The notes beneath the pieces were generated by a model. The model was not told the origin of the DNA. It searched no databases and was given only the letters and a program-made list of their open reading frames with translations. Below, piece by piece: positions 11,158 through 45,393 of a DNA stretch of 64,000 bases. This DNA comes from Oligoflexales bacterium (lineage in GTDB: Bacteria > Myxococcota_A > UBA9042 > DTJE01): positions 2,059-66,058 of the forward strand of contig DUVQ01000098.1 of NCBI GenBank assembly GCA_012840965.1, in the 5' to 3' direction. Both the position numbers and the translations under genes were made by a program. The first letter of the stretch is position 1, and every line of letters starts with the position of its first letter.

Positions 11158-11300
11158 TCCTGTCCCTGGCCCTAGTGACCTGATCCTGTCCCTGCCCCTG
11201 TCCCTGCCCCTAGCCCTGTCCCTGTCCCTGATCCTGTCCCCGCCCCTGCCCCCTTCTCCCTTCACCCTTCACCCTTCCTCCCACCCCCGCCCCCGCCCCC
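11158..11300 (+). repeat. C-rich (CCCTGY)n low-complexity repeat tract (copy R1 of the dispersed family)
   Basis: cctgtccctgcccctgtccctgcccctagccctgtccctgtccctgatcctgtccccgcccctgcccc... lies directly after the stop of the upstream gene. Confidence 0.9.
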
Positions 11301-11362
11301 AAACTTGGGTCTTCCCTCACTTACCTGTAGAATATAACGAGCTGTTTGAGGTTGAAGCCAAA

Positions 11363-12079
11363 TTGTCCAGTGACGCTCCAGGTGGCCCCCCAAAACCGGA
11401 AAACTACCTTCAGCTTGTCCGAGGCATCGCAGCTAGCATCATCGGTAAGCTACCGCCAAACTATACCCTGGACGAGTTGGTCAGCGCTGGCATGATTGGC
11501 CTAATGGATGCCTGCCGCCAGTTCGATCCCGCAAGGGGTGTCCCCTTTGAGCGATTCGCAGAACATCGGATTAAAGGGGCTATCCAGGATGAACTTAGGG
11601 CCCGAGATGAAACCTCTAGGGCCGCCCGCAGACTGGCTAATCGGGTTGACCAGGCCAAGCACCACCTTTCCAATCAGCTGGGACGCGTGCCATCGTCTGA
11701 AGAAATTGCCAAGGAAATGGGCATGACCCTTGAACATTATCAAAGGCTTGAGGCCCAAATGAACCAAGTGGTCGTCCTTGGTTTTGACGATATGCTAAAA
11801 GCCAACGACACCACGAGGCAGCAAGAAACCGTTTATCCAGTGGATCCTGATGCAACCGACCCTGAGGAACACTCGCTGAGAAAACAGGAGATGCTAAGGA
11901 TTATTGAAGCGTTAGAACAATTGACCCCAAAGGAAAAAACGGTCGTTGTCTTATACTACTTCAAAGGTGTTTTGTTTAAGGATATCGCCATGTTACTTGA
12001 TGTCACAGAGGGACGAATCTCGCAGCTTCATACAGCGGCCATGGGGCGTCTTAAAAAGCTGATGGATAAAAGGATCTAA
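11363..12079 (+). CDS. fliA: RNA polymerase sigma factor, FliA/WhiG (sigma-28) family
   Basis: Region 2 ...LDELVSAGMIGLMDACRQFDPARGVPFERFAEHRIKGAIQDELR... and region 4 ...KEKTVVVLYYFKGVLFKDIAMLLDVTEGRISQLH.... The track ORF (11135) reads the repeat tract as LSLPLSLPLALSLSL. I placed the start at the in-frame TTG at 11363, which gives a FliA-sized 238-aa product. Start is uncertain. Confidence 0.7.
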   Translation: MSSDAPGGPPKPENYLQLVRGIAASIIGKLPPNYTLDELVSAGMIGLMDACRQFDPARGVPFERFAEHRIKGAIQDELRARDETSRAARRLANRVDQAKHHLSNQLGRVPSSEEIAKEMGMTLEHYQRLEAQMNQVVVLGFDDMLKANDTTRQQETVYPVDPDATDPEEHSLRKQEMLRIIEALEQLTPKEKTVVVLYYFKGVLFKDIAMLLDVTEGRISQLHTAAMGRLKKLMDKRI

Positions 12080-12121
12080 AGGTTTTCAACGGCTACACAA
12101 TTTTGCTTAGGGAGTTAGATC

Positions 12122-13927
12122 ATGCCTGAACAAAAAGGTAAATTGACACAGTTAATAAATGATTATCTGGCCACAGCCCAACAAAACGAGTCAGATGCCT
12201 ACAAATGGCTTGTTGAAAATGGAATGCAAGGCTGTTTGGCCAAGTACCTGGCAAACGCCGGGGCACCTGAAATTCAAACTTTTTTGAACGATGTCTTTAG
12301 AATTGACCGCGAGTGGCTAAAGCGGCATCGAGAAGCCAAGTCAGCTTTGACCAAACCAGCGATTACTTCGTTGTCAGTACTTCCCCCCTTTCTTTTAGAT
12401 AAAGAAAACAAGGAGCGACTGGAACTAATAGGCAAAACTTCGCTGAAAAATGGCCGTTGGGGAGTTTTAATCTTTTCAGGTGGCGCCGCAACCAGATTTT
12501 TTTCAGATAGCGCACTTAAAGACAAGGTTAAAAGCTTAAAAGGGCCAATTCCTAAAGGGCTTTTTCCACTAACACCTGTCCTGGGGTTGCCTTTTTTAGA
12601 CTTTTTTGCCGCCCAGATGCTGGAAATTGGAATTGAGACAGGTACCTTGCCGCCTCTTATCCTGATGGTCAGCAGTGAAACAGCCGACGCGATTAAGGCG
12701 TGGAGGCCGCACTATCCAGCTGAGGCGTTAATCATCATAGAGCAGGCCCGCCATCCGCGTCTTGATGAGGACGGAGATTTGGTAGCACACCCAGATGGCA
12801 GGCTGGTGCAAACTGGAGACGGTCATGGAGGGGTGTTCAAGGCGCTGCAGCAGCCGCGAGCAGGAGGGGATGGAGGCAGGGACAGGGACAGGGGTGCTGA
12901 AGGCAAGTCCGTGTGGGGCGGGGAGCCTCAGCCAGGAGACAGTGCTATGGACAAGCTTTTGTCGATGGGTGTTGATTCCATAGTCATGCACAACGTCGAT
13001 AATGCCGGGGCAAACGCGCTTGAGGCCGGTCGCTTGGGATGGTTCATTGATTCGAACGTTTCCTTTGGAATGACTGCAGTTGAAAGAACCAAGGTTGCAG
13101 AAAAAGTTGGAATTATCGCAGTTGATGACAGCGCGGATCGTGTGGACGTCGTTGAGTATTCAGTATGCCCTCCAGAACTGGCCACAGCAGCCGATTCTCA
13201 AGGACAACCAATCTTCAAATTGGCCCACATCAACACCAATCTTGTAAAGCTTGATTCAATAAATGCTGACCTGCCACCCACCTTGTACAGTGGAAAAAAG
13301 GTATCAGTCGGCGGCCAGACCATAGTCACAAGTTCCCTAGAAATGCTCAATCAGCATCTGGCAAAGACCCTACCAAAACAAAAGGTTGGCGTAATTTTAA
13401 TGAAGCGTGACGAAAGCTTTATGCCAACCAAGAGCATTTCCGGAGAAGATTCGTTAGAAAGCACTCAAGCAACTATGGCCCGCTTGTGGAAAGAGCGCCT
13501 AATCCAAGCCGGCGGCCAGGCAAGCCACGACGCCATGATCGAGCTTTACCCATCTTTTACACCGCCTGGTCTTTGGGCGAAAGGCTGGCAAATTGGTGAT
13601 GGAGCAACGTTAGCATTGGCCATAAAGCATGGAACTGAAAACCATTTTTTAGGAACAAACCTAGTTTTGGAGTCAGGCGCCAAACTAAGCATCACGGCGC
13701 AAAACCCTTATGGAGAAATAAGATACGCTGCCAAAACCAGAAAAATATCAGCCGACCCCAAAACCGCTGCGAAAGTAAGCCTAGGTAACAACGTCAAATT
13801 ACTTTGCAATGTGTCCATAAAGGTGCACATAAATGGAAGCGGAGTTTTGGTAATAAAAGACGGCCATATCTTCGATCAATCACAGACTTTGATCATAAAT
13901 TCGGGCGAAGTTTACCAGATAGGTTAA
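12122..13927 (+). CDS. UDP-sugar pyrophosphorylase-family (UDPGP/UAP1-like) nucleotidyltransferase with a C-terminal beta-helix-like tail
   Basis: ...VLIFSGGAATRF..., ...LILMVSSETADAIKAW... and ...RLVQTGDGHGGVFKAL... align with the UAP1/UGP G-loop, TSE and GNGG motifs. It carries an in-frame G-rich repeat insertion (12863-12897). Confidence 0.6.
   Translation: MPEQKGKLTQLINDYLATAQQNESDAYKWLVENGMQGCLAKYLANAGAPEIQTFLNDVFRIDREWLKRHREAKSALTKPAITSLSVLPPFLLDKENKERLELIGKTSLKNGRWGVLIFSGGAATRFFSDSALKDKVKSLKGPIPKGLFPLTPVLGLPFLDFFAAQMLEIGIETGTLPPLILMVSSETADAIKAWRPHYPAEALIIIEQARHPRLDEDGDLVAHPDGRLVQTGDGHGGVFKALQQPRAGGDGGRDRDRGAEGKSVWGGEPQPGDSAMDKLLSMGVDSIVMHNVDNAGANALEAGRLGWFIDSNVSFGMTAVERTKVAEKVGIIAVDDSADRVDVVEYSVCPPELATAADSQGQPIFKLAHINTNLVKLDSINADLPPTLYSGKKVSVGGQTIVTSSLEMLNQHLAKTLPKQKVGVILMKRDESFMPTKSISGEDSLESTQATMARLWKERLIQAGGQASHDAMIELYPSFTPPGLWAKGWQIGDGATLALAIKHGTENHFLGTNLVLESGAKLSITAQNPYGEIRYAAKTRKISADPKTAAKVSLGNNVKLLCNVSIKVHINGSGVLVIKDGHIFDQSQTLIINSGEVYQIG
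12863..12897 (+). repeat. G-rich repeat copy embedded in-frame in a CDS (ggaggcagggacagggacaggggtgctg)
   Basis: Same family as the intergenic copies. It encodes the low-complexity GGDGGRDRDRGAEG between conserved UDPGP blocks. Confidence 0.8.
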
Positions 13928-13999
13928 ATTAGCGTGTTTTCAGATCAAATTTGGTCTGAATATTTTTGTTACTTAGTCGTCAAAGGTTAGGTTTTACGC

Positions 14000-14587
14000 G
14001 TGGAAGTATTAGAACGCGACTTAGTGCTGGCTGCCAAAAAGGGTGATAGGGCGGCTTTTAAAGTGTTGGTGGAACGGTATTACGGGAGGATTCACCGAAT
14101 GTTGACGGTGATGACTAGAAACCAAGATGTTGCTTTGGATTTAACCCAAGAAACATTTGCTAAGGCGATTGAGGCGCTTCCAAACTTTAACATGACCTCA
14201 TCGTTTTACACTTGGATTTACCGGATCGCCCGTAATCTCGCTCTCGATAGATTTCGTCGTTATAAGACCGCAGGCGGTCAAAGCGAGTACGACGACAGCA
14301 GGGAGGCGCAGGTGGCTTGGGGGTTAGGACAAACAGTTCCTCTTGAACCTTCCCGAGCGGTGGCAGCACAACAGTCATTGAATATAGTTGCCGAGGCACT
14401 TGATGAATTAAAGCCACAGTTCAAGGAAATCATCATCTTGCGAGAAATCGAAGAGATGAGCTATGAAGAGATTTCCCAAACCTTGAATCTGAAAATGGGA
14501 ACTGTGATGTCTAGGCTCTTTCAGGCGAGGATGGCTTTGAGAGAGTTGCTTGAGCCTCGTCTTGGCGCTAATGCGGCCAAGCTTTAA
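14000..14587 (+). CDS. ECF (sigma-70 family group 4) sigma factor
   Basis: Region 2 ...YYGRIHRMLTVMTRNQDVALDLTQETFAKA...FYTWIYRIARNLALDRFRR... and the region-4 HTH ...MSYEEISQTLNLKMGTVMSRL.... GTG start. Confidence 0.85.
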   Translation: MEVLERDLVLAAKKGDRAAFKVLVERYYGRIHRMLTVMTRNQDVALDLTQETFAKAIEALPNFNMTSSFYTWIYRIARNLALDRFRRYKTAGGQSEYDDSREAQVAWGLGQTVPLEPSRAVAAQQSLNIVAEALDELKPQFKEIIILREIEEMSYEEISQTLNLKMGTVMSRLFQARMALRELLEPRLGANAAKL

Positions 14588-14602
14588 AAAGGCGGTGATG
14601 TT

Positions 14603-15046
14603 ATGTCTGAAATTAAAAAGAAACGCTTATCAAAAAGGGAATTAATGGCCGCCATGTTGGACGCTGATGCTGGAAGGCGCAGCGACGATGCTGAGGTTTC
14701 AGCCTTTGCAAATCTTAGCCAGCAGATCCGACAATCGGTGGCCGACACCTCTCCTCCACCTTTTGAGCTGATGTGGCAAGGGGTTGAGGCCAGAATCGAG
14801 GCAAATGCTAGGGAAGCGGCTAATGAAAAAACCGCCAAATCTTGGTCCTTTGGTTGGTTTTTGGCCCCAATTGGCGCCTTGGTTATTGCCGCAGTTGTTG
14901 GTTATTTTGTATTTTCAGGGCAAGAGGGCTTGGATAATCGCTGTTATGTCGATTCTTATGATGTTGAGTCAGGGATTATTTTGGTTCAGCAAGATTTAAA
15001 CGACAAAGACGGGGCTACCGTAATCTGGCACCTTGATGAAGGCTAG
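14603..15046 (+). CDS. putative anti-sigma factor (single-TM)
   Basis: Immediately downstream of the ECF sigma. N-terminal cytoplasmic segment, then TM WSFGWFLAPIGALVIAAVVGYFVF. Confidence 0.55.
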   Translation: MSEIKKKRLSKRELMAAMLDADAGRRSDDAEVSAFANLSQQIRQSVADTSPPPFELMWQGVEARIEANAREAANEKTAKSWSFGWFLAPIGALVIAAVVGYFVFSGQEGLDNRCYVDSYDVESGIILVQQDLNDKDGATVIWHLDEG

Positions 15047-15063
15047 AAATGGGGGGTGGCGAT

Positions 15064-15528
15064 ATGAAAAAGTATCTGAAAAAGACTTCAATTCTTAGTG
15101 CTTTTGTCTTCTTGTTCACCTTTTTTGCCTTAAGTGTCGCAAAGGCGCAAACTTCTGAAGCCGAGCTGAAAATCACGGTGATTCATGCCAAGTCTGGAGA
15201 GCCTTACTTAAGCCCAGAGCTAAGGCCACTGTGGAGAACTATTCGCAAAACCTTTGGAGACCAGTTTTCGAGTTATCGGCAGATCACCTCTAAAGCTGGG
15301 GTGGTCCAAGAGGGTAAGCAAGTCACCGTTGACCTTCCAGATGGCACCACTTTTGAGGCTATGTACAATGGCGTCACAAAAAAGGCCGGACTTTTAAGGG
15401 TGCATTTGGCCTTTGGTGAGTTTAGGACCAAGGTGCGAATTCATAGTGGTGGAACCTTTTTTCAAGCCGGTCGCAAGTACGACAAGGGCACGTTAATCAT
15501 CGCCGTCAGTGCTACTTTAAAGGACTGA
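15064..15528 (+). CDS. secreted hypothetical protein
   Basis: Signal peptide MKKYLKKTSILSAFVFLFTFFALSVAKA. RBS GGGGGGTGG upstream of the ATG at 15064. Confidence 0.5.
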   Translation: MKKYLKKTSILSAFVFLFTFFALSVAKAQTSEAELKITVIHAKSGEPYLSPELRPLWRTIRKTFGDQFSSYRQITSKAGVVQEGKQVTVDLPDGTTFEAMYNGVTKKAGLLRVHLAFGEFRTKVRIHSGGTFFQAGRKYDKGTLIIAVSATLKD

Positions 15529-15680
15529 CCTCTCCACAAAATCTTGCTTAAATCCAATGATCACTACCTAAATATGATGTCAAAAGCAGGAGTCTCGGGA
15601 CCACAATGAAATATAGGGTTGTGCCTTGACCATCTAAAAAAAATCTTCACAATCGCTAGTGGTGTTGCAGGAGCTTAACT

Positions 15681-16940
15681 GTGATTAAGATGCGATGGTT
15701 TTTTAGCTTTGGACTAGCACTGTTTTTGGCTGCGAGTGTTGGCTGTGGTGAAGCAGAACAAAAAACAGACGATGGGGCACCAGAACGTGACGCAGCCGCT
15801 GACGACAATGCCCAACCGCCAGACGCAGATGCCCCAGATGTTGATGACGCTGAGGATTCAGTGGATATAGAAGAGGTTGATGTCTGTGTTCCGAACTGTG
15901 ACGGTCGTCTATGTGGCGATGATGGCTGTGGCAACAGCTGTGGGCAGTGCGCGACTGGCCAGGAATGCGAGGATGGCACGTGCGTTAAACAGTGTCTGAA
16001 ACTAAATCGCACTGAAGTTACAGCCAGTTGGAAGCCCATCCATGGGCCAGATGACCCAAGAGGTGAATTCTACTATCAGGAAGTGGAGGAAAACGGGGAC
16101 GTGGTTAGTGCCCTGCGCTTGGAAATTCGCCAGTTTCACCCCTTCAATGGACCTCAAGGACCTGGGGAATATGACATTGCCTTCAAAGAGGAGAATGGTT
16201 TTGGCGCCTGTACTATCTGTGTCAGCTTTTTTGATAGTTGTGGCCAGACTGGCTGTAACAGGCGGCTGCTTGCAACCTCGGGAACACTTGTGATTGAAAG
16301 CCTTGATGGAGCTGATGCCTCGTTTAAGGCCACGCTCAAGGACTTGGTACTTAAGGAAGTTTCCATCGACAAGGATTACAACACTTATTACCTGAAGAAT
16401 AAGGAAACGGCTTGCATTGATGAATACGTGATCGAATCTGAAGAGGTCAGGCTGGCTGTACCACAACCTCAGTGTATGGCCGAGGGTACTGGCATATTCC
16501 TGGACGACAATATCGCAGATTTCGAGCTTACCAACTGCCTTGATGAAAAGCGCAATCTGCATGAAATGTGCAATCAAACCAAGGCCATGTGGTTGGTGCT
16601 GGGTGCAATGTGGTGCCCATACTGCAGCCAGTATATACCCATGTTTGATGAGATTAGGGCGAACAACGCTGATTCCATCGAATTGTGGGTTGTGATGGGT
16701 GAAAACAAAAATCGCCTAGCACCAACGGCTGCTGACTGCCTTGAATATGCGCAAAAAGTCGGAGTTGACCCCTCAAGAGTCTTTTATGATCACCACTATG
16801 AAACGGTCACGGAATATATTTATCCGTACGTGTTTCAGGGGATCCCATTTAGCATCATCCTGGACGGCAGTAACATGGCTTACATATGGTCTGATGGCAC
16901 TTATGGGTCCCTTAATTCTGCTTTAGGTGGGCTGCTGTAA
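15681..16940 (+). CDS. Cys-rich lipoprotein with C-terminal thioredoxin-fold (TlpA/redoxin-like) domain
   Basis: Lipobox LAASVGC, an acidic linker, the module CVPNCDGRLCGDDGCGNSCGQCATGQECEDGTC, and C-terminal ...WLVLGAMWCPYCSQYIPMFDE...GIPFSIILDG (CxxC plus cis-Pro region). Confidence 0.7.
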   Translation: MIKMRWFFSFGLALFLAASVGCGEAEQKTDDGAPERDAAADDNAQPPDADAPDVDDAEDSVDIEEVDVCVPNCDGRLCGDDGCGNSCGQCATGQECEDGTCVKQCLKLNRTEVTASWKPIHGPDDPRGEFYYQEVEENGDVVSALRLEIRQFHPFNGPQGPGEYDIAFKEENGFGACTICVSFFDSCGQTGCNRRLLATSGTLVIESLDGADASFKATLKDLVLKEVSIDKDYNTYYLKNKETACIDEYVIESEEVRLAVPQPQCMAEGTGIFLDDNIADFELTNCLDEKRNLHEMCNQTKAMWLVLGAMWCPYCSQYIPMFDEIRANNADSIELWVVMGENKNRLAPTAADCLEYAQKVGVDPSRVFYDHHYETVTEYIYPYVFQGIPFSIILDGSNMAYIWSDGTYGSLNSALGGLL

Positions 16941-16966
16941 CGATACATATCTTATAACGAGGAAAA

Positions 16967-17824
16967 GTGATGGATTTACAACAGATTCTGACCAAGGAAA
17001 ACCTGGTTTATCGTGGAAAATCTAAAGAGGTTTACTCGATACCAGGTGGTAAGTACGCTGGTAAATATGCGCTGCTTTTTACTGACCGGGCGACTGGTTA
17101 CATTGGGCCGGATGGTGAGCCTGTCTTTGACCCTGGAAGGGACGTTGTGGTGGGCTCAATCCCTGGTAAGGGCGCGATAGCGTGCAAGTTTGCTACTTGG
17201 TTTTTTGAACTTTTGGATAAAAAGGGGATCAAATCCCACTTTATAGATAGCCCTGCGGACAACGTGATGATTGTAAAACCTGCCAAGCCGCTGGGATTGA
17301 CCCCACAGTCGCCTGAATTTGAAGGGGCAGCTCCACTGGAAAATCTTGAATTCACTTGGCGCAATCAGGCTACGGGCAGTTTTTGGCGGCGTTATCCCTT
17401 TATGAGGCCGTGTGCCAAGCTTGATATTTTGGTGGAGGCTTGGACCAAGGGCGATTCTGACACGTTGATTACATTCGAATCTTTGGAACAAGTTGGCGTC
17501 ATGACCAAGGCTGAAATTTCGTATGCGGTTGATATGGTAAAGGAAATTGCCGCTACCGTGACTCAGGCTTTTGCAGACAAGGGGTTACACTGTCTTGATG
17601 GAAAATTCGAGCTTGGACGACTTAACGATGGGCAAATAGTGCTAATTGACGAGATTTCACCTGACGTTTTGAGGGTGTGCAAAGGCTATTTGCCTGATGA
17701 AAACGGCCATTGCACTGTCTATCACGAATGTATCAAGACGCGCTTGAAGGATGGGCAAAGAAGCATCAAGGCAAAAAATCAGCAAAGTGCCGATGAACTA
17801 AGACGAATTTTTGTTGAGGTTTAA
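16967..17824 (+). CDS. purC: phosphoribosylaminoimidazole-succinocarboxamide synthase (SAICAR synthetase)
   Basis: ...LVYRGKSKEVYS..., ...IPGKGAIACKFATWFFELLDKKGIKSHFI.... Long-type PurC, 285 aa. Confidence 0.85.
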   Translation: MMDLQQILTKENLVYRGKSKEVYSIPGGKYAGKYALLFTDRATGYIGPDGEPVFDPGRDVVVGSIPGKGAIACKFATWFFELLDKKGIKSHFIDSPADNVMIVKPAKPLGLTPQSPEFEGAAPLENLEFTWRNQATGSFWRRYPFMRPCAKLDILVEAWTKGDSDTLITFESLEQVGVMTKAEISYAVDMVKEIAATVTQAFADKGLHCLDGKFELGRLNDGQIVLIDEISPDVLRVCKGYLPDENGHCTVYHECIKTRLKDGQRSIKAKNQQSADELRRIFVEV

Positions 17825-17838
17825 TCAGGTTGTTACTA

Positions 17839-18918
17839 ATGAGACGTTTGGTTCTTTTAGCGATTTTACTTTTGCTGCCAAGCCACGCTTTTGCCCACGC
17901 TGGTATTATTTCGGGAGTCGAGAGACAAAAACTGACTGTTTCCAGGAGTACCTGGAAGTCTGAGGGGCGAACACTCACGGCAAATCTGCTTTTTGTGCGC
18001 CACCAGTTGGAACATATCGGAGTTAATGTCCCTGAATCGGTAGATTTCGAAGGTGGGGTTAACGAAGAGGCGGTCAAAAAGGCGTTAATCGACAAGATTG
18101 TGGTAACGCGCCAAGGAAAAGCTTGTGACGCAGTGACGATTGTATCTGGAGACACCAAGGACCAAGTGACAACCCAAATACAGTGGCAGTGTCCTGGTGG
18201 CAGTGAGCCTATTTTGGTAACCCTAGGATTTTTTGATATTTTCGATCCAGATCATCGGCATCTGGCTTCGATTTCTGATGAATCAGGGGCCAGAACCGAG
18301 GTGCTTGGCGCTGCAAACCCTGTCGTCAAGATTACGGCTGCTCCCGGGGTTTCAAGCTGGCTTTCATGGTCATTTTTTAAGTTGGGAATCGAGCACATCC
18401 TGATTGGATGGGACCATCTTTTGTTCCTTTTTGCTTTGATCCTGCTAGGTGGAACTTTTAAATCACTTTTTGGAACGATTACCGCCTTTACTATTGCCCA
18501 CTCGATTACCCTTGCCCTTGCCGCGTTGGAGATTTGGACGCCTGGGCCAGCAATCGTGGAGCCGATGATTGGTGCGACTATCGCCTATGTGGGTTTTGAA
18601 AACCTGTTTTTGAAGGAGCCTAAAGGGCGCTGGCGGATTACATTCCTGCTGGGACTAATCCACGGGTTTGGGTTTGCTGGAGCGCTTATAGAGGTTGGAA
18701 TTGCTCAAACCCAGTTGGCCACAACCCTGCTTATGTTCAACTTAGGTGTTGAGGTCGGCCAACTGATGGTTTTGGCGGTGTTTTTACCGCTTGTTTTACT
18801 TGCGCGTCGTAGTAAATGGGTTGTGAATAGAGCTGTTCCTGTACTGTCGGCCGGGATTGGGGGCACTGGCTTGGTCTTGGCGATAATGAGGATCGTTGAG
18901 GCGGTTGGTAGGGGATAG
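17839..18918 (+). CDS. HupE/UreJ-family membrane protein with N-terminal periplasmic domain
   Basis: Signal peptide MRRLVLLAILLLLPSHAFA. C-terminal ...HILIGWDHLLFLFALILLGG...TIAHSITLALA...LLGLIHGFGFAGAL resembles HupE/UreJ metal-transporter helices. Confidence 0.55.
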   Translation: MRRLVLLAILLLLPSHAFAHAGIISGVERQKLTVSRSTWKSEGRTLTANLLFVRHQLEHIGVNVPESVDFEGGVNEEAVKKALIDKIVVTRQGKACDAVTIVSGDTKDQVTTQIQWQCPGGSEPILVTLGFFDIFDPDHRHLASISDESGARTEVLGAANPVVKITAAPGVSSWLSWSFFKLGIEHILIGWDHLLFLFALILLGGTFKSLFGTITAFTIAHSITLALAALEIWTPGPAIVEPMIGATIAYVGFENLFLKEPKGRWRITFLLGLIHGFGFAGALIEVGIAQTQLATTLLMFNLGVEVGQLMVLAVFLPLVLLARRSKWVVNRAVPVLSAGIGGTGLVLAIMRIVEAVGRG

Positions 18919-18975
18919 TGGGGCAGGGGCGGGAGGTAGGGGCGCGGAGTAGGGTGGTTGGTTTGGGCGGGATTT
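18919..18975 (+). repeat. G-rich repeat copy R2 (G-quadruplex-capable)
   Basis: gggcaggggcgggaggtaggggcgcggagtagggtggttggtttgggcggg, between convergent genes. Confidence 0.85.
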
Positions 18976-18979
18976 TGGG

Positions 18980-19933: not shown

Positions 19934-20073
19934 AATGTCCTAGAAGTGGCAAAAGTCACTTAAGTCAAGCTAGTCGCAGATAATGCCACCATCGCATCTG
20001 AGATCAAGTAAAAAATGCGCGAACCTGTATCAACTGGCGGCTTGCGATCAGAAGGCGGGAGTTTTGAATAAAG

Positions 20074-21167: not shown

Positions 21168-21222
21168 AAGGTGTGCCTTCCTCGAACGAACTATAGCGAT
21201 GGGAGGGAACGGAATCAATTGG

Positions 21223-21310
21223 TTGCACAAAAAATGAGCGAGTTTTTTGTTTGTTTGCACATTTTTAGAGCGAGTTTTTGCTCCATTTGCACAAAAAATG
21301 AGCGAGTTTT
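21223..21310. repeat. three tandem 31-32-bp repeats (TTGCACAAAAAATGAGCGAGTTTT...)
   Basis: Copies at 21223-21246, 21255-21279 (degenerate) and 21286-21309, in the region upstream of the pseudogene start and 3' of tRNA-Cys. Confidence 0.8.
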
Positions 21311-21388: not shown

Positions 21389-21459
<71 letters not shown>

Positions 21460-36475: not shown

Positions 36476-36716
36476 GTATCGCCTCCATTTTGGGTGCTCG
36501 CTTTGGGGACGGACACCCAGGAAGGGCCAAAACCTAGCATCGGTCAAGTGAAATGTCAATAGGTAAAGTCGTATAGTGAACGCAACCAAACGTATGACTG
36601 GCAAGGAATTTTTATTGCAAGTGCAAAATATGGGATAAAAGTACTTGAAACTCAACAATGGTTTCAATTAGAATTCCAGCGGCCTTTTGGCAGATCACTC
36701 CAGAGGAGATTCAAAA

Positions 36717-38429: not shown

Positions 38430-38661
38430 TACCTGACTCCCTCCTTTCATAAGACATCGCATAATTTCATTGAATGGGTAATTCTTGATGAGCTCGGTGC
38501 CAAGGTCTATTTGGCAGTGAGGGCCTTTTAGACAATCAACTGGATGCTGCCAAGCTTGATCTTTAAGATAAGGAACAAGTAGTTGAAAGATAAATGTGTT
38601 TTTAGGTAGAATTTACAATTCCAGTGGCCCTTTGGCAGTCTACTCCAAAGGAGATTCAAAA

Positions 38662-39789
38662 ATGCGTCGACGTGGCTTGTTAATCGTTTGCCTGTTCATG
38701 GCGGGCTCATTTGCAGCGTGCGGTGTTGACAAGAAAAACCAAGAAGTTCCCGTTGACACGGTTGAAACTGGCGATGGTTTCAGCTGTGATCCTGGGAAGG
38801 AGCCGGGGGAAGATTTGGAAGAAGAGCCCGGGGAAGCGCCTGGAGAGGATCCGGGACAAGAGCCTGAACAAGACCCGGGACAAGAGGCCAGCGAGCCGGC
38901 AAAGGTGCTGGAACGTGGTGACTGCAAATCATGTACAGGCGATGATGACTGCAATGAAGGCTTTAAGTGCCTATCTTTGGCCTCTGAAGACAAATACTGC
39001 CTGCGTCCTTGTGAAGAGCACAAGGATTGTTTGCCTGGCTACCAGTGCTTTCAGGCCTCAAGCGTTCTCAAGGCTTGTGTTCCAAACACTTACAACTGCG
39101 TACCATGCGCCTTTGATGCGCCATGTGACGAAGGCATGTGTTGCGACTTTGGCTCCGGCCAGTGTTGGGAATGTCGCCAGCAGTGTGATCGATGCATCTA
39201 TGACAGCAACTGTGCCGGCGACATGCGGTGCTTTAAAAAGGCTGGTAGTCCGGTTGGTGTTTGCGTTGAAGAATGCGAGAAGCAGGAATGTTCTGACACC
39301 ACCAATTTTACGTGCAGCCCCAGTTTCAACAATATTCAGGTGTGCCAGCCAAACGACGTCTATTGTGGCGGTTGCCCAGATGGTACCTTTCCGTTGCCTG
39401 ATGGAACTGGCTGCGTTGAGTGTCTTGACAGCAGCCATTGTGATGACGGTATTTGTGATTTGATTACTTATACTTGTGACTATTCCGAGTGTCCTTCCCA
39501 CCTACATATGTGCGATGACGGTCAATGTCACACGTGTTGTGAAGACGCTCATTGCGTGTGTGAGGGTGGTGGTACTGGCATTTGTAGGTCGAATTTCGAA
39601 TGTGAATGCTGCTCCACATGCGATGATAGTGACTGTAGAGACCCGTATCCTGTGTGCGCTAAGGTTGATGGGGTTGAGATGTGTGTTCAGTGCAAAGAGG
39701 ACGCTGACTGCCATCGCATCAATGAAGCCTGCATTTGTACCCCTGTGTACGCATGTGAGTTTTCCGATCATACGGCATGCACAAAATAG
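38662..39789 (+). CDS. Cys-rich lipoprotein, paralog B (375 aa)
   Basis: ATG at 38662 has the same leader and RBS as paralog A. Signal MRRRGLLIVCLFMAGSFAAC, acidic PGE/PGQ repeat, and a core about 330 aa long that is colinear with A. Confidence 0.75.
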   Translation: MRRRGLLIVCLFMAGSFAACGVDKKNQEVPVDTVETGDGFSCDPGKEPGEDLEEEPGEAPGEDPGQEPEQDPGQEASEPAKVLERGDCKSCTGDDDCNEGFKCLSLASEDKYCLRPCEEHKDCLPGYQCFQASSVLKACVPNTYNCVPCAFDAPCDEGMCCDFGSGQCWECRQQCDRCIYDSNCAGDMRCFKKAGSPVGVCVEECEKQECSDTTNFTCSPSFNNIQVCQPNDVYCGGCPDGTFPLPDGTGCVECLDSSHCDDGICDLITYTCDYSECPSHLHMCDDGQCHTCCEDAHCVCEGGGTGICRSNFECECCSTCDDSDCRDPYPVCAKVDGVEMCVQCKEDADCHRINEACICTPVYACEFSDHTACTK

Positions 39790-39856
39790 GCGACTCTTTT
39801 TAAAAAAAACAGCTGATTTGTGCTAAAACTCGCCTAGGCTTTTGGAGCGTGTAGTC

Positions 39857-42292
39857 ATGACCTCGATTGAAAAACTTGGCGCCTTTTATCTTGGTCGCCA
39901 TTGGGACCAGCTAAATCGCACAACTTTGGACGTGCCTGTAATGCTCGATTCCAGGGATCTGCTGACGCATGCCGTGTGTCTTGGTATGACTGGCAGTGGG
40001 AAAACTGGGCTTGGTGTAGCAATGCTGGAAGAGGCCGCGATTGACCAAATCCCGGCCATTGTTATTGACCCAAAAGGAGATATGACCAATCTGGCGTTGA
40101 CGTTTCCTGGGCTTGCGGGCCAGGATTTTGAACCCTGGATTGACGCCCAAGTTGCAGCCCAAAAGGGGGTGGATGTGCCTGTGCTGGCACAGCAGACGGC
40201 GCAGATGTGGGCAAATGGGATACAGGAGTGGGGCCAGGATGCGGCAAGGATCCAAAGGTTTAAAGATGCCGCGAGGGTGGAGATATACACCCCAGGAAGC
40301 AGTACTGCGCCTTTGTCCATCTTGAAGGCCTTTTCACCACCTAGCAGCCAAGTGATGGCAGAAAGCGATCTCTATGCGGACACGCTCTCGGGCACTGTTT
40401 CAGCGCTGCTTACCTTGATTGGCGTGGACCCAGACCCAGCAAAAAGCAAAGAGCTGGTTTTGATAAGCAGCATCCTTGACAGGCTATGGCGAAATGGCGA
40501 GGGCACAGACCTAGCTGGGCTGATTACGCTGGTACAAAACCCGCCCATGACTCAGATTGGGGTGTTTAATCTCGATATGTTTTATCCGGCGCCAGAACGG
40601 ATGAAGCTTGCGATGGCGTTAAATAATCTTTTGGCGTCGCCAGACTTTTCGGCTTGGATTCAAGGGCCGCCTTTGGATATCAATTCGCTGCTTTACACGC
40701 CGGAAGGAAAGCCAAAACTGTCTGTGATTTCGATTTCTCATCTGGATGACCAATCCAGGATGTTCGTGGTTTCTTTGGTTCTAAACAGGTTGTTGACTTG
40801 GGTAAGGGCTCAAAATGGGACATCCAGCTTGAGGGCCTTGTTTTACATGGACGAGATCTTTGGCTTTTTACCCCCAGTTGCCCAACCGCCTTCCAAAAAG
40901 CCGCTGTTGACCTTGTTGAAACAGGCTCGTGCCTTTGGGTTGGGACTGGTTTTATGTACCCAGAACCCTGCGGATATTGATTACAAGGCCTTGTCCAATA
41001 TTGGAATTTGGATGATTGGCCGCTTGCAGACCGAGCAAGACAGGAACCGGTTGCTTGATGGTTTGAAAGAAAACCCGGCCTTGGGTGATAGGGCACAGCT
41101 TGGGGGGTTGATAAGTGCCTTGGATAAAAGGGCATTTTTAATGCACAACGTCCATGATGAGCGACCTTACATTTTCAAGACCCGGTGGTGCTTGTCTTAT
41201 CTTGCAGGACCACTAAGCAGGGAGCAGCTTCGGAGATTGGTTACTACTGCCGAGGTCGTGCAGCCGGTAGAAGGGCCTAAGGCTGAAGCGGGTGTTGGGC
41301 TGGTGGGTGGTCAGGTACAGGCTGGGATCGGGGCGGGAATGCCGCCTGTGTTACCAGCTAGCATCTCGCCTGTTTTTTTACCGCCAAACAGTGGGCTGCG
41401 TGCTGACGAACCGGTTGTTTATCGTCCTTCGCTTTTGGCGTTTGGCTCGGTTTACTATGCTGATGCGAGGTATCGCCTTAATTTCGAAGAACAGGTGATG
41501 GCCTTGTTCGACGATGAAGAAAAACCTTTGATGATGGACTGGGAGCAGGCTATCAAAGTCGACTGTGCAGCAAGCGATTTGCGGCCATTTCAGCCTGTTG
41601 ATGGTAAGTTTTTTGTCCCTCCTGCGTGGATGATTAATGACAAGGAATACAAGAATTATGCTTCATCCATGCAAAATTGGCTTTTGCGAAGCAAGCGGTT
41701 GACTTTGTGGCGTAGTCCTTCAACCAAGCTTGTCTCGGCGGCTGGCGAGGCTGAGCAAGATTTTCGCCTTAGGCTGAAACAGGCTGGTCGTGAGGAGCGG
41801 GATTTGAAGCTTGATGCCATCAAAAAGCGTTATGCAACTCGTGTTGAGCGGCTGCAAAACCAGATCCGTCAGGCGGAAGATAAGCTAGAAAAGGAGCATC
41901 TACGGCACAGCAATTTGAAAAAAGAGGCTGCGCTTGCGGCTGGTAGAACGTTGTTTTCAGGGTTGTTTGGTGGTAGGGGGGCAATCAGCAAGGCCTCTAC
42001 GGCCATGCGTAAAAGCCAAAGAAGCGGTGAAAAGGCCAAGGATGTCGAACTGGCTCAACAAAGACTGGCGGACCTTCAACAGCAAGAGCTGGACCTGCAA
42101 GCAGAACTTAGCCAAGAGATTGAAAACCTGCAGGCAGCGCTTGATCCAATGACAGAGGTCTTGGAAGAAATCGAGGTTTTGCCAAAAAAGACAAATATAT
42201 CCCTGCACATGCTTACTTTGTGTTGGCTACCTTACAGCGTGAGTGGACCTGGGATTTTGAAGCCTTTGTGGTCTGCATCGAGAGATCAATGA
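39857..42292 (+). CDS. HerA/FtsK-clade P-loop ATPase (DUF853/YjgR-like) with C-terminal coiled coil
   Basis: Walker A LGMTGSGKTG followed by IVIDPKGDM. Later block ...RAFGLGLVLCTQNPADID...IGRLQTEQD.... No TM. Heptad-rich tail of about 200 aa. Confidence 0.65.
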   Translation: MTSIEKLGAFYLGRHWDQLNRTTLDVPVMLDSRDLLTHAVCLGMTGSGKTGLGVAMLEEAAIDQIPAIVIDPKGDMTNLALTFPGLAGQDFEPWIDAQVAAQKGVDVPVLAQQTAQMWANGIQEWGQDAARIQRFKDAARVEIYTPGSSTAPLSILKAFSPPSSQVMAESDLYADTLSGTVSALLTLIGVDPDPAKSKELVLISSILDRLWRNGEGTDLAGLITLVQNPPMTQIGVFNLDMFYPAPERMKLAMALNNLLASPDFSAWIQGPPLDINSLLYTPEGKPKLSVISISHLDDQSRMFVVSLVLNRLLTWVRAQNGTSSLRALFYMDEIFGFLPPVAQPPSKKPLLTLLKQARAFGLGLVLCTQNPADIDYKALSNIGIWMIGRLQTEQDRNRLLDGLKENPALGDRAQLGGLISALDKRAFLMHNVHDERPYIFKTRWCLSYLAGPLSREQLRRLVTTAEVVQPVEGPKAEAGVGLVGGQVQAGIGAGMPPVLPASISPVFLPPNSGLRADEPVVYRPSLLAFGSVYYADARYRLNFEEQVMALFDDEEKPLMMDWEQAIKVDCAASDLRPFQPVDGKFFVPPAWMINDKEYKNYASSMQNWLLRSKRLTLWRSPSTKLVSAAGEAEQDFRLRLKQAGREERDLKLDAIKKRYATRVERLQNQIRQAEDKLEKEHLRHSNLKKEAALAAGRTLFSGLFGGRGAISKASTAMRKSQRSGEKAKDVELAQQRLADLQQQELDLQAELSQEIENLQAALDPMTEVLEEIEVLPKKTNISLHMLTLCWLPYSVSGPGILKPLWSASRDQ

Positions 42293-43530: not shown

Positions 43531-43606
43531 GAACGAACTCCAAAGCAGGTCCCAAACAAGGCGCGAGATGATACCACGCACCATCGATCACGACAAAACT
43601 GGTCTT

Positions 43607-43646
43607 GCCCCTGGTTTTGGCCCTGGCCCTGTCCCCTGCCCCTGCT
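43607..43646 (+). repeat. C-rich repeat copy R6 (G-rich on the ribBA-sense strand)
   Basis: cccctggttttggccctggccctgtcccctgcccctgc, inside the ribBA 5' leader. Confidence 0.8.
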
Positions 43647-43649
43647 ACA

Positions 43650-43980
43650 GATCCTGCTAATTTGTCTGTTATGACTCCTGATTGTTTGTTCTTTTTTGCG
43701 TTTGATCTCTTCGTTACAGTTGTAAAACACGTCCCGGGGGCATCCTTCCGGACCCAAAATCTCCCGTAGCCACCCCGACTGTCTCTTAGTGACATCGTCC
43801 GGGCGAAATACACGATTGCTAATGTGTACGTTTATCCTTTTGGCCCGGACGGAGTGCTGCGCACTCTTCAAGTCACCTAAGAGACGTCGGGTCCCGGCAA
43901 CTCCCGATAGCGCCCTCCAGGATTGCCCCCGGACCATGTTGCAGGGTGCCCTCTCGACCTTCTTTTAGCTCCAAATCCCG
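43650..43980 (-). other. structured non-coding region upstream of ribBA (candidate cis-regulatory RNA; family unassigned)
   Basis: Long-range inverted repeat cccgggggcatcc (43731-43744) / ggattgcccccgg (43921-43934), plus internal helices GTCCGGGC...GCCCGGAC (43797-43850) and GAGTGC-tgc-GCACTC (43850-43866). Not coding in any frame. Strand assumed from ribBA. Confidence 0.3.
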
Positions 43981-43984
43981 CTAA

Positions 43985-44040
43985 ACAGTACGATCATTTC
44001 CCTGCCTCCTGTTCCCTGCCTTCTCTGTCCCTGCCAAGAC
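43985..44040 (+). repeat. C-rich repeat copy R7
   Basis: ccctgcctcctgttccctgccttctctgtccctgcc. Confidence 0.75.
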
Positions 44041-44146
44041 TAGGCGGGTACGGTTTGGCGGTCGGTAATGATTGAGTTCAGGTTCGACATGTGCTATCAC
44101 CAAGCATCGGGTTTGGAATGGACCGTTGATTCTGTAGGGGTCGTTA

Positions 44147-45352
44147 ATGCGGGTCTTGCGATATTTGGCTGTACTTTCGCTAGTTTTCGCTATTATCGCG
44201 ATGATTGGTTGTGACGATTCTGCCCATCGAGCCCATGTTTTGGGGGGAGTGCCGCTGCCTTCTGATGATGAGCCGGATATCGTGTCAAAGCCTGATGAGG
44301 GCGGCGATACTGATGAGGGTTTTGATGTCGATTCATTGTGCGTGCCGGAGTGTGGGGACAGAGTCTGTGGCCCTGATCCCGTTTGCGGCAAGTCGTGTGG
44401 CACCTGTGATGCTTCCACAACTTGCAATTCTCAAGGCCAGTGTGAGTGTGTGAGAGACTGTACCGGTCGCGTTTGTGGTCCGGACCCTGTTTGTGGCGAG
44501 CCGTGTGGGGCTTGTGATGAAAACTGGGTCTGTGTTCTTAGTGGCAAGTGTATAGCCCCAACAGCCGACTGCAGCAACGGGTGGTGTTTGATTCCGTCAG
44601 GCACCTTTAAGATGGGTTCTTTAGGAGATGATCCTTACCGTGAACTTGATGAGGGGCCTGTTCATTTGGTCACGATTTCCCGCTCTTTTTACATGGCGCA
44701 GACGGAAGTCACTCAGGGCCAGTGGAAGTCCTTGATAGGCAACAATCCTTCTGAACATAGTGCCTGTGGGGATAACTGCCCTCTTGAGAACGTTAATTGG
44801 TATGAAGCCGTTCATTATGCAAATGCGCTTTCTGAGAGGGAAGGTTTTGAAACCTGTTACACGTTGAATGGTTGCAGTGGTACTGTCGGTTCTGGGGAAA
44901 GTAAGAACAATCTCTATCAATGTACGGTCACTTTTAAGGGACTTGGTTGTGCAGGTTATCGTTTACCAACCGAGGCCGAGTGGGAATATGCAGCCCGTGC
45001 TGGTACTTCTGGGCCTAGGTATGGCGAAATTGATGCCACAACTTGGTATTGGAACAACAGTTCAAACACTAGTCATCCGGTGGGTGGAAAGGCGGCAAAT
45101 TCCTGGGGCTTATATGATGTGCTGGGCAATGTATTTGAGTGGGTTTACGACTTTTACAGCGAGGACTACTACAGCACTTGTTCATCCAACTGCACAGATC
45201 CAACCGGACCTGCGACAGGCTTTAACCGGGTAAATCGTAGTGGCGGTTGGGGCAGCGACGAAAGCCGTACACGCGTGGTTTTTCGCAACAACTACTCGCC
45301 TGACGAACGCCGAGTCTATTTGGGTTTTCGTTTGGTGAGGTCCGCGCCCTAG
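44147..45352 (+). CDS. lipoprotein with two Cys-rich CxxCxxRxCGxDxxCGxxCGxC modules and a C-terminal FGE-sulfatase (SUMF1-like) domain
   Basis: Lipobox AMIGC. Modules CVPECGDRVCGPDPVCGKSCGTCD... and CVRDCTGRVCGPDPVCGEPCGACD.... FGE motifs ...HLVTISRSFYMAQTEVTQGQW..., YRLPTEAEWEYAARAG, ...GNVFEWVYD.... Confidence 0.75.
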   Translation: MRVLRYLAVLSLVFAIIAMIGCDDSAHRAHVLGGVPLPSDDEPDIVSKPDEGGDTDEGFDVDSLCVPECGDRVCGPDPVCGKSCGTCDASTTCNSQGQCECVRDCTGRVCGPDPVCGEPCGACDENWVCVLSGKCIAPTADCSNGWCLIPSGTFKMGSLGDDPYRELDEGPVHLVTISRSFYMAQTEVTQGQWKSLIGNNPSEHSACGDNCPLENVNWYEAVHYANALSEREGFETCYTLNGCSGTVGSGESKNNLYQCTVTFKGLGCAGYRLPTEAEWEYAARAGTSGPRYGEIDATTWYWNNSSNTSHPVGGKAANSWGLYDVLGNVFEWVYDFYSEDYYSTCSSNCTDPTGPATGFNRVNRSGGWGSDESRTRVVFRNNYSPDERRVYLGFRLVRSAP

Positions 45353-45393
45353 TCTCCTGCCTCCTCTCCCCGTCCCTGCCCTCGCCCTCGCGC
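45352..45393 (+). repeat. C-rich repeat copy R8
   Basis: gtctcctgcctcctctccccgtccctgccctcgccctcgcgccgcc, directly after the stop. Confidence 0.75.

Follow-up and report, generated by a model that had tools for sequence, protein, structure and literature searches.

The window, i.e., the whole 64,000-nucleotide stretch of DNA that we analysed, derives from an uncultured Myxococcota bacterium that has a ~3.2-Mb genome with 50% GC and is recurrent in digester and sludge metagenomes. A cyanobacterial origin was rejected, as the window lacks HIP1 sites and its homologues carry Myxococcota names; a scan of a genome-contig collection with the HupE-like protein gave 41% identity as the best match, and hence no near relative. 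Scattered over the window are short tracts that are C-rich on one strand and G-rich on the other, a discrete non-coding element enclosed by two of these tracts, and longer arrays of related units within an open reading frame. The initial annotation had described the tracts as nine intergenic copies of a (CCCTGY)n-like repeat; all nine are present, but eight of them are intergenic and one lies in a coding sequence. The features are as follows.

11158-11300, plus strand (C-rich on plus): R1, a composite solo tract
12863-12897, minus strand (G-rich on plus): R1b, in frame in a UDPGP-family gene (12122-13927), where it encodes ...GGDGGRDRDRGA...
18919-18975, minus strand (G-rich on plus): R2, a degenerate G-run tract
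21518-21574, minus strand (G-rich on plus): R3, a solo hexamer tract
22871-22898, minus strand (G-rich on plus): R4, a solo hexamer tract between the stop of a 227-aa gene (22860) and the GH35 gene
25205-25240, plus strand (C-rich on plus, opposite to R4): R5, a degenerate C-run tract
43607-43646, plus strand: R6, the tract that forms the left arm of the mobile element, from the multiple alignment of copies with their flanks
43645-44001, plus strand: the non-coding mobile element, from its fold, multi-copy alignment and terminal repeats
43985-44040, plus strand: R7, made up of the right terminus of the element (43985-44001) and its right tract arm (44002-44036)
45352-45393, plus strand (C-rich on plus): R8, a solo tract between the stop of the FGE-sulfatase gene and the SurA-like gene
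62116-62272 and 62863-63063, plus strand: in-frame arrays in a Ser/Thr kinase-FGE ORF (61149-63545)

R1 consists of a hexamer array (11158-11252) followed by (CCCTTCA)n (11251-11277) and (CCCGCC)n (11280-11300). Upstream, it adjoins the stop of the ORF at 9280-11157, whose TGA is located inside a CCCTGA unit; downstream, a promoter-like sequence (TTGGGT-17-TAGAAT) is found 5' of a sigma-factor gene. R1 is intergenic, since this gene, encoding 238 amino acids as called in other assemblies, starts only at ~11363. In one strain locus (L165), a different upstream locus is joined inside R1. R3 has as neighbours a tRNA-Cys gene (21387-21459, minus strand) and the DUF6036 nucleotidyltransferase gene. 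The latter occupies positions 21648-22187. R2 makes up the entire convergent spacer between the stops of the HupE/UreJ (18918) and AA_kinase (18980) genes, and R5 that between the stops of the GH35 (25204) and signal peptidase (25237) genes. With R1, R2, R5 and R8 all abutting stop codons, the proposal that the copies sit at gene ends holds. The two arrays in the kinase ORF, which are the largest arrays of CCCTGY-like units and had been overlooked, encode PAPEPEP-type, (P-A/E/V)n linkers, and are coding low complexity that has its DNA motif in common with the tracts.

The sequence CCCTGYCCCTG, with at most one mismatch, is found 35 times in the window, versus a mean of 2.8 and a maximum of 8 in shuffled sequences. 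TRF detects arrays with a period of 6, 12 or 18 at R1, R1b, R3 and R6, and a period of 13-14 for R2 and R7. The hexamer unit has the consensus YCCYGN and is mostly CCCTGY. Whereas R1, R1b, R3, R4 and R6 are clear hexamer arrays, as had been proposed for all copies, R2, R5, R7 and R8 are degenerate G/C-run tracts in which only two in-phase units, or none, were scored. Literature searches for the motif, and for G4s or MITEs in Myxococcota, returned nothing relevant.

Distribution statistics were obtained from ~560 kb of non-redundant DNA of the same organism. It should be noted that this sample was ascertained through the element, and that element-associated tracts are therefore over-represented in it; its gene calls come from a crude home-made caller. 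The sample contains 96 tracts in which at least three in-phase YCCYG units are arranged head to tail, and 86 of these are located outside deep coding sequence, which accounts for 66% of the bases. Viral contigs served as a control: there, 78 out of 120 occurrences of the pattern are deep inside ORFs, and the location of the tracts is therefore not an artefact of the sequence itself. Together with the enrichment in the window, this restriction to non-coding DNA confirms that the repeat family is dispersed, non-random and associated with gene boundaries. The tracts that do occur within long genes are in frame, and are found in either orientation.

The longer arrays vary in copy number between strains. 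At one locus (L066), located in a divergent spacer upstream of a gene, near-identical strains have a tract of 101 or 23 nt, a difference of 78 nt that equals 13 units of 6, and at another locus near-identical strains differ by 53 nt. R1, including 20-nt flanks, spans 183, 231, 276 or 278 nt depending on the strain. Short tracts (28-57 nt) are invariant among the strains that reach them: R1b is unchanged across 10 strains, and so are R3 and R4 in the 9 strains whose loci extend that far. R2 is nearly invariant, L166 being the one that differs. The tract indels are sometimes not multiples of 3 (47 and 53 nt). A 60-nt polymorphism between L076 and L111 was rejected as a member of the hexamer family, being a coding (AEPA)n repeat.

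The tracts had been proposed to act as cassette boundaries of individual protein genes, with both flanking copies in the same orientation. The orientation is indeed the same for R3/R4, R6/R7 and R7/R8, but R4 and R5 are opposed, R4 being G-rich and R5 C-rich on the plus strand. Furthermore, the flanked genes are constant among strains: the DUF6036 module and the GH35 gene are found unaltered in each of those among the ten strain loci that extend to that region. The FGE gene is missing solely in distant relatives with 63-70% GC; the HerA-like gene next to ribBA is also missing in these, even though it has no flanking tracts. These observations lend no support to a role of the tracts as boundaries of protein-gene cassettes.

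What R6 and R7 do flank, in one orientation, is a discrete unit, as the initial annotation had recognised. This unit had been taken for a structured region in the ribBA leader, but it is one copy of a multi-copy mobile element of which the two tracts are the arms. In Rfam 15, there is no match with E<=10 in the region 43550-44150, and window-wide only tRNA-Cys reaches the gathering score; an FMN riboswitch, or another known RNA ahead of ribBA, was therefore rejected. The element is composed of a left terminus (CTACAGATCCTGCTAAT...), an imperfect hairpin core at ~43727-43945 that accounts for ~210 nt of the 357 bp, and a right terminus (...CAGTACGATCATTTCC). Its fold has a z-score of ~-5 on both strands, and the consensus structure contains 75 pairs, 3 of them with compensatory changes; the mean column identity in an alignment of 25 copies is 90%. 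A metagenome scan with the element gave 100 matching stretches, the alignments covering window positions 43618-44035, so that BLAST alignments of other copies reach into R6 from ~43618. The sample contains 63 non-redundant copies, at least 41 of which are complete. Without exception, the qualifying flanking tracts (52 out of 52) are C-rich on the top strand of the element. Genes were called on both sides of 37 copies; every one of these copies is intergenic, without bias as to gene direction. The left terminus, CTACAG, is mostly preceded by CCCTG or a close variant; since CCCTG is the tract unit itself, the insertion target is inseparable from its context.

The two ends of the element share a 22-nt direct repeat, and in the family consensus each contains a TGCT-N4-AGCA mini-hairpin with a stem of just 4 bp that not all copies conserve. 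Aligned in direct orientation the ends score 24, and aligned in inverted orientation they score 15, which equals the 95th percentile of shuffled sequences. A fixed-length target duplication was not observed at the two sites for which filled and empty alleles are available (see below), the arms being variable and unequal in length. Having neither TIR nor TSD, the element was rejected as a classical, DDE-transposase-dependent MITE. A tblastn search of ~750 kb (~20% of the genome) with an approximate IS200 TnpA query did not reveal a transposase partner. An autonomous version was not found either, none of the element copies being longer than 536 bp; the ~190 bp by which the long copies exceed the others correspond to a second MITE nested in them, and not to an ORF. 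The element is absent from the viral contigs and from the loci of relatives. Some copies are truncated and retain the right end only, and these share one breakpoint, at core position ~335-337, which coincides with CCCYG microhomology; they are therefore deletion derivatives. A SINE-like target-primed reverse transcription, suggested by right-end-only copies with long tails, was rejected because of this single shared breakpoint. A 1.67-kb insertion at L066 is an IS-like two-ORF unit without flanking tracts, and is unrelated to the element.

Two loci are polymorphic, having both filled and empty alleles, and at both of them the empty allele is an intact tract. One is the R8 site, which is empty in the window and in L006; L133 has a complete copy of the element in it, and the contigs of L001, L002 and L005 end inside that copy. 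The other is the L068/L092 locus. At these loci the element is positioned ~13 nt from the 5' end of the tract on the C strand, and in either filled allele the right arm runs collinearly with the empty tract until the unique flank is reached. The match between filled-allele arms and empty tracts is imperfect, with 3 out of 28 and 4 out of 35 positions being different and extra units being present, and such junctions are as compatible with recombination or gene conversion as they are with transposition. The two filled/empty pairs could have arisen by insertion of the element into a tract, or by its excision or deletion, with the tract being left behind. Because the copies are tract-flanked in one polarity and the empty alleles are intact tracts, R6 and R7 are the two arms around one element, and R8 is a site that is unoccupied, or has been vacated.

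To serve as docking site and arms for this ~357-bp non-coding element is the only activity that has been demonstrated for the tracts. We consider it likely, though far from certain, that the tracts are genome-wide hexanucleotide simple repeats that are tolerated or selfish, and that provide the docking site and arms of a hairpin-rich mobile element. According to this view, tracts occupy any intergenic space, often the full spacer up to the stop codons, and those inside genes persist only where they are read in frame as (Pro-X)n or (Gly-X)n linkers. Between strains, long arrays gain or lose blocks of units, probably via slippage or unequal recombination. The element would insert strand-specifically, 3' of a CCCTG unit, a step that may involve a hairpin-recognising HUH-type enzyme or tract homology. 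Folding of the tracts into G4 or i-motif structures, if it occurs, would add to their instability and not contribute to gene regulation.

The causal order might also be the reverse, with the element making the tracts: its end units would expand by slippage, and recombination between the arms would delete the core and leave a solo tract, so that R1-R5 and R8 would be footprints resembling solo LTRs. This view may be supported by the observations that each inspected copy retains at least two tract units on the left and at least three on the right, the right arms being systematically longer, that the hexamer phase continues into the core terminus (CCCTGA TCCTGC TAAT), that deletion derivatives such as the right-end-only copies have junctions at tract-like microhomology, that tandem copies have one tract in common, and that the total arm length of the filled alleles exceeds that of the empty tracts. 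However, the window, whose selection did not depend on the element, contains ~7 solo tracts per element copy, in-frame tracts are present in either orientation in long genes where the element was probably never tolerated, and the filled right arms are collinear with the empty tract, as is expected for insertion into an existing tract. We therefore regard an origin of the tracts from the element as rather unlikely. About equally tentative is the view that the arrays are dedicated landing pads for an undescribed class of mobile DNA that homes in strand-specifically at ~13 nt from their 5' end. The driver would in this case be a hairpin-recognising HUH-type nuclease, or breaks induced by G4/i-motif structures combined with tract homology, and the arrays could also shuttle the FGE gene (R7-R8) or the DUF6036 module (R3-R4).

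Other explanations assign the tracts a role in the expression of neighbouring genes, or derive them from such genes. The initial annotation considered them to be G-quadruplex and i-motif elements that act as terminators or insulators at gene ends. Canonical motifs (four G3+ runs with loops N1-7) are enriched ~8-fold in the window (13 versus 1.7 in shuffled sequences) and are present in R1, R2, R3, R4, R6 and R8, the tracts in which RNAfold, run with the G-quadruplex option, also predicts G4s; the statement that the motif is satisfied many times over applies to R1 only. Consistent with a role in termination, R2 and R5 take up whole convergent spacers in which no hairpin terminator is present, and the region 10500-26500 contains only 11 terminator-like sites, versus 19.9 expected. 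However, R1b, R5 and R7 lack the canonical motif: one loop in R1b is 9 nt, R5 has just three G3+ runs and R7 just three C3 runs. None of the 11 terminator-like sites overlaps a tract, and the tracts contain neither a hairpin nor a T-run. Moreover, the density of solo tracts, ~0.35 per kb of intergenic DNA, is equal in tandem, convergent and divergent spacers, divergent promoter regions bear tracts more often per region than convergent regions do, and in tandem contexts 7 tracts are C-rich and 11 G-rich on the sense strand, i.e., there is no bias. The equal density and the unbiased orientation, to which the element copies conform, mean that nothing indicates terminators or insulators. With the arrays also being arms of a mobile element inserted in any orientation to genes, and their length varying freely between strains, the predicted G4-based termination or insulation is improbable. 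The same figures bear on Rho-dependent termination, in which C-rich, G-poor tract RNA would function as a rut site downstream of genes. Such RNA would indeed be produced right after the stop codon at R1, R5 and R8, and at R2 for the minus-strand kinase gene, but R3, R4 and R6 would give G-rich sense RNA, orientation is mixed in the wider sample as well, and 7 tracts of that sample are located in divergent spacers, where there is no upstream gene; this makes a general rut function highly improbable. Some tracts may have a function; R2 and R5, for example, take the place of any conventional terminator in their convergent spacers. Array length near promoters might also tune or phase-vary neighbouring genes, as in contingency loci, and both the variable R1 array (183, 231 or 278 nt), which abuts the promoter-like sequence of the sigma-factor gene, and the L066 tract, being upstream of a gene, would be candidates. 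However, the length change in R1 occurs upstream of the -35 hexamer and leaves the -35/-10 spacing unaltered, most tracts are short and do not vary across the 10 strains, and many are located after stops or between convergent stops, where there is no promoter, making this explanation quite improbable. Finally, the tracts could derive from coding sequence that has decayed or escaped annotation, namely from Pro-rich or Gly-rich tails of proteins, given that these units do code for (P-X)n linkers in the kinase ORF, and that an ORF from 11135 is open through all of R1. This is scarcely credible in view of the start of the sigma-factor gene called in other assemblies, the stops in two frames of R1, the indels that are not multiples of 3, and the occurrence of tracts in either orientation as well as in divergent promoter regions.

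Intergenic simple-repeat families and MITE- or REPIN-like elements are kinds of sequences that are already known, and the ~360-bp non-coding mobile element is previously undescribed. Among the simple-repeat families are the cyanobacterial STRR heptamers, e.g., CCCCAGT, reportedly described by Mazel et al. in 1990; STRR1 is likewise rich in C-runs. In Beggiatoaceae, TAACTGA direct repeats have been described (MacGregor 2015, cited in PMC4853749). The STRR and TAACTGA repeats have in common with the tracts that they have units of 6-7 nt, are present in variable tandem copy number, are scattered over many intergenic sites in the genome of one lineage, and have no established function; the tracts differ from them in that the hexamer has another sequence, the host phylum is Myxococcota, and a specific mobile element is physically linked to the arrays. 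We know of no report of such a link for either the STRR or the TAACTGA repeats. The REP/BIME and REPIN sequences, which are linked to RAYT (HUH Y1) transposases, are likewise intergenic, non-coding and abundant; REPINs form long hairpins and encode no protein, and REP arrays are specific insertion sites for other mobile DNA, e.g., IS1397 and members of the IS110 family such as IS621. By analogy with REP/RAYT, the hairpin-bearing ends in direct orientation would suggest recognition by an HUH enzyme. Unlike these sequences, the tracts are simple-sequence arrays and not palindromic units, the core of the element is much longer, and neither a GTAG-type signature nor a RAYT gene was seen. The element also resembles the MITE-like ERIC and Correia/NEMIS sequences of enterobacteria and Neisseria, respectively, and the PATEs derived from IS200/IS605, in being a 100-400-bp, non-coding, structured, multi-copy and intergenic sequence with internal indel variants. 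PATEs, which lack both TIR and TSD, integrate in a single orientation, 3' of a short target motif. What distinguishes the element from this group as a whole is the combination of no terminal inverted repeats, no fixed target duplication and simple-sequence flanks. In eukaryotes, non-LTR elements insert into (TAA)n, (TC)n or telomeric repeats, and microsatellites are carried by SINEs and MITEs. Like the microsatellite-homing elements, the one described here is always found within one simple repeat, with fixed polarity and arms of variable length, but whereas the former use reverse transcription primed on the repeat, it has no reverse transcriptase and no random 5' truncation. Bacterial G-quadruplex motifs, finally, are known from promoters and UTRs, e.g., in Deinococcus and Mycobacterium. 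The tracts share with them the G3-4 runs, the short loops and the enrichment in non-coding DNA, but they are a by-product of a tandem hexamer and have no strand or position preference relative to transcription.

In summary, the polarity of the flanking tracts and the two polymorphic sites provide a sequence-defined case in which a bacterial microsatellite family and a mobile element are structurally linked. The non-coding G4 enrichment in this genome is a by-product of tandem repeats without a positional signature of regulation, which calls for caution in G4 surveys. The arrays and the element also break short-read assemblies, as illustrated by the several contigs that end at R1 or inside the copy at the R8 site, and they mark strain-level variation in this Myxococcota lineage. 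The joint spread of simple repeats and small non-coding elements in compact prokaryotic genomes thereby becomes testable in one organism.

The nine tracts described in the initial annotation are present in the window and comprise clean hexamer arrays, with the unit YCCYGN, and degenerate G/C-run tracts of a similar flavour:

R1, 11158-11300: clean hexamer array
R1b, 12863-12897: clean hexamer array
R2, 18919-18975: degenerate tract
R3, 21518-21574: clean hexamer array
R4, 22871-22898: clean hexamer array, G-rich on the plus strand
R5, 25205-25240: degenerate tract, C-rich on the plus strand
R6, 43607-43646: clean hexamer array
R7, 43985-44040: degenerate tract
R8, 45352-45393: degenerate tract

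The motif CCCTGYCCCTG, allowing at most one mismatch, has 35 matches in the window; dinucleotide-preserving shuffles average 2.8 and never exceed 8. Tandem Repeats Finder detects arrays with periods of 6/12/18 at R1, R1b, R3 and R6. The largest arrays of related units, which the initial annotation had missed, are located at 62116-62272 and 62863-63063, in frame within a Ser/Thr kinase-FGE ORF, where they code for PAPEPEP-type linkers. Canonical G4 motifs number 13 in the window versus 1.7 in shuffles. The G4 potential ascribed to the tracts applies to six of the nine, which contain a canonical motif; R1b, R5 and R7 have none. Judged from sequence, it is plausible that the tracts fold into G4 or i-motif structures, and, if such folding is real, it would more likely cause array instability and breakage than serve as a regulatory device.

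The hexanucleotide simple-repeat family is confined to non-coding DNA or in-frame linkers. Tract location relative to genes, a check that had been proposed earlier, was analyzed in a non-redundant sample of ~560 kb that includes the window: 86 of the 96 tracts with at least three in-phase units are outside deep coding DNA, although 66% of the bases are deep coding. In viral contigs, used as a control, 78 of 120 occurrences of the identical DNA pattern lie deep within ORFs; it is thus this genome, and not the sequence itself, that accounts for the non-coding location. When the 44 solo tracts were classified with a simple codon-usage gene caller, 18 were assigned to tandem spacers (sense strand C-rich in 7 and G-rich in 11), 7 to divergent and 2 to convergent spacers, and 9 to the inside of genes, the remainder being at the 5' edge of a called ORF (5) or at contig ends (3). 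Normalised to the available DNA, solo tracts are equally dense in the three types of spacer (tandem, convergent and divergent), at ~0.35 per kb. In addition, none of the terminator-like hairpins in the 10.5-26.5 kb region coincides with a tract. The equal density, the mixed sense strand and the lack of overlap with such hairpins argue against the proposal that the tracts act as terminators or insulators. Their pattern is typical of DNA tolerated in any available non-coding space, and is not what terminators, rut sites or insulators would show.

Three contigs from metagenomes match the window at 99.7% identity and end at R8, where each has a copy, 92-93% identical, of the sequence that the window has after R6. 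Scanning the metagenome collection with a 22-mer from this post-R6 sequence yielded 100 stretches, and BLAST comparison of window positions 43591-44060 with these stretches revealed a multi-copy element, the alignments typically spanning 43618-44035, i.e., running through R6 and R7. The ~560-kb sample contains 63 copies, 41 of which are complete by a set criterion. Genes were called on both sides of 37 copies, all of them intergenic; the four gene configurations account for 11, 10, 9 and 7 of these copies. The core of ~330 bp has a mean column identity of 90% in a 25-copy alignment and folds into a long imperfect hairpin (z ~ -5 on either strand); of the 75 pairs in its consensus structure, 3 show compensatory changes, and two sub-hairpins of the core occur as interchangeable sequence modules. 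No match to the core was found in Rfam, in IMG/VR or in the loci of relatives. The two termini of the element share a 22-nt direct repeat (consensus GCTACAGATCCTGCTAATTAGCA and GCTCCAAATCCTGCTAAACAGCA), and each contains a TGCT-N4-AGCA mini-hairpin in the consensus; terminal inverted repeats are absent from the ends. Variants include copies with core deletions at microhomology, right-end-only derivatives with a single common breakpoint, and copies containing a nested second MITE, whose insertion point in the core is fixed between CTAAG and A in several copies and which has no copy in the window:

L074 (a locus from another assembly), 3987-4192, also in L086, L092, L097 and L126: nested MITE of ~190-205 bp with the perfect 16-bp TIR GCCCCCAAAATCACCG

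The tracts constitute both arms of this structured non-coding mobile element and always have the same polarity relative to it. All 52 hexamer tracts flanking element copies are C-rich on the top strand of the element, and the inspected copies never have fewer than two units on the left or fewer than three on the right, the right arms being longer. Empty alleles of element sites are intact tracts. At R8, the window and L006 have the empty allele, a tract of 42 nt, and L133 has the filled allele, with a complete element 13 nt into the tract; L001, L002 and L005 end within this same element copy. At a second polymorphic locus, L092 is empty, with a 48-nt tract, and L068 is filled by a short-variant element ~13 nt from the same tract end. 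At both loci, the filled allele has a right arm that is collinear with the empty tract as far as the unique flank, with 3 differences in 28 positions in one case and 4 in 35 in the other. Given this coupling and the polymorphism at R8, R6 and R7 are the arms of a single element copy (43645-44001), and R8 is an element site that is either unoccupied or vacated.

The relationship between tracts and element may be explained in different ways. A serious rival is that the tracts are born from the ends of the element, in which case the solo tracts would be its footprints. Homology between the tract arms might offer an alternative route by which the element spreads or is lost. In the mechanism that we propose, the element would insert in a strand-specific manner on the 3' side of a CCCTG unit, close to where the array has its 5' end. 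The element may resemble the IS200/IS605 or REP-RAYT (HUH) systems in its direct-repeat, hairpin-bearing termini and in its lack of TIR and TSD; an HUH-type enzyme (IS200/IS605 or RAYT-like) was not found in the ~20% of the genome searched with an approximate IS200 TnpA query.

The view that the tracts are cassette boundaries holds for the non-coding element only, and finds no support for protein genes. The initial annotation also stated that both members of every flanking pair have the same orientation, which is wrong for the GH35 gene, since R4 is G-rich and R5 C-rich on the plus strand and the two are thus inverted. Moreover, each of the ten strain loci that extends to that region has the DUF6036 module and GH35 in unchanged form. 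In distant high-GC relatives, the syntenic locus lacks the FGE-sulfatase lipoprotein gene (44147-45352), and the SurA-like gene is directly beside ribBA. It should be noted that the HerA-like gene (DUF87, 39842-42292) on the other side of ribBA, which has no flanking tracts, is equally missing in the relatives, and the comparison for the FGE gene is therefore uninformative on tract-mediated mobility.

Array length is unstable when the array is long. Long arrays differ in length among strains that are 98-99.9% identical, as illustrated by one that measures 101 nt in one strain and, with 13 units fewer, 23 nt in another, and by a 53-nt difference at another locus. Depending on the strain, R1 with its 20-nt flanks spans 183, 231 or 278 nt, sizes that arose through duplication of blocks of 48 and 47 nt. 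Among the short tracts, R1b, R3 and R4 show no variation across the strain loci that reach them, and R2 shows almost none. In L165 (3100-3340), the sigma-factor promoter region is joined inside R1 to a different upstream locus, which contains genes for a trypsin-like protease and a ribulose-phosphate epimerase; this junction reflects either rearrangement at the tract or a chimeric assembly. R1 is also where several contigs end, and these ends and the L165 junction are consistent with recombination or assembly breaks at arrays. Separately, L066 has a 1.67-kb insertion (5195-6862) that is missing in the otherwise 98%-identical L124; it contains two minus-strand ORFs of 199 and 302 aa, looks IS-like and has no flanking hexamer tracts.

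Pfam annotation shows that the window is an ordinary chromosomal region, with genes for PGK, TIM, ParA/ParB, purC, a large PurL, ribBA, sigma factors, GH35 and FGE-sulfatase proteins, and for a MopE/LTD protein typical of Myxococcota. Its proteins recur in 'Myxococcota bacterium' MAGs, whose contigs reach 3.2 Mb, and in many digester and activated-sludge metagenomes. Single-contig assemblies of ~3.2 Mb exist for this species and encode these proteins, one example being MGI6683847.1; MAGs include GCA_029567465.1, GCA_017995135.1 and GCA_020047475.1. The host genome, of ~3.2 Mb, is small for the phylum. The closest ribBA relatives (L055-L057 and L158-L160) are syntenic and have 74-82% protein identity, with 63-70% GC vs 50% in the window, and a large GC drop seems to have occurred in this Myxococcota lineage. 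Upstream of ribBA (43585-44146), no FMN riboswitch or other Rfam family was detectable, and, judging from homologues, ribBA probably starts not at the ATG at 43584 but ~18-20 codons downstream of it. Directly downstream of ribBA, relatives have short hexamer arrays with other units, (CGTACC/CGTCCC)n, (CGTGCA)n and (ACGTCG)n (L057 2983-3008 and L160 1414-1516), so that small intergenic arrays of hexamers may be more widespread in the clade.

Other repeats and gene changes were also observed. Compared with L166 (9324-9573), where the DUF4143 gene is intact and encodes 323 aa, the window (20074-20795) and most strains have a 250-bp deletion that splits this gene into ORFs of 167 and 70 aa. A 32-bp unit, TTGCACAAAAAATGAGCGAGTTTTTGCTCCAT, is repeated 2.8 times at 21223-21310, directly downstream of tRNA-Cys (21387-21459, minus strand). 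The region 36687-39789, where JGI gene calls are fragmentary, contains adjacent paralogous ORFs (37141-37937 and 38915-39714) with 74% DNA identity and without Pfam domain; both hold a 9-nt GCATGCC-type, MPG-coding repeat that is also present in the orthologues of relatives.

Among the closest known counterparts of the hexamer tracts are the cyanobacterial STRR heptamers, an intergenic short tandem repeat family. The TAACTGA repeats of Beggiatoaceae, another such family (cited in PMC4853749), are similarly close. For tracts and element, the closest systems include REP/BIME/REPIN and the insertion sequences targeting them; for the element itself, they include ERIC- and Correia-type elements and IS200/IS605 PATEs, and eukaryotic microsatellite-homing elements are close by analogy to the tract-bound element. 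A search of the literature for the hexamer family and for the element turned up no report of either. The main interest of these findings is the strict coupling of a microsatellite with a mobile element.
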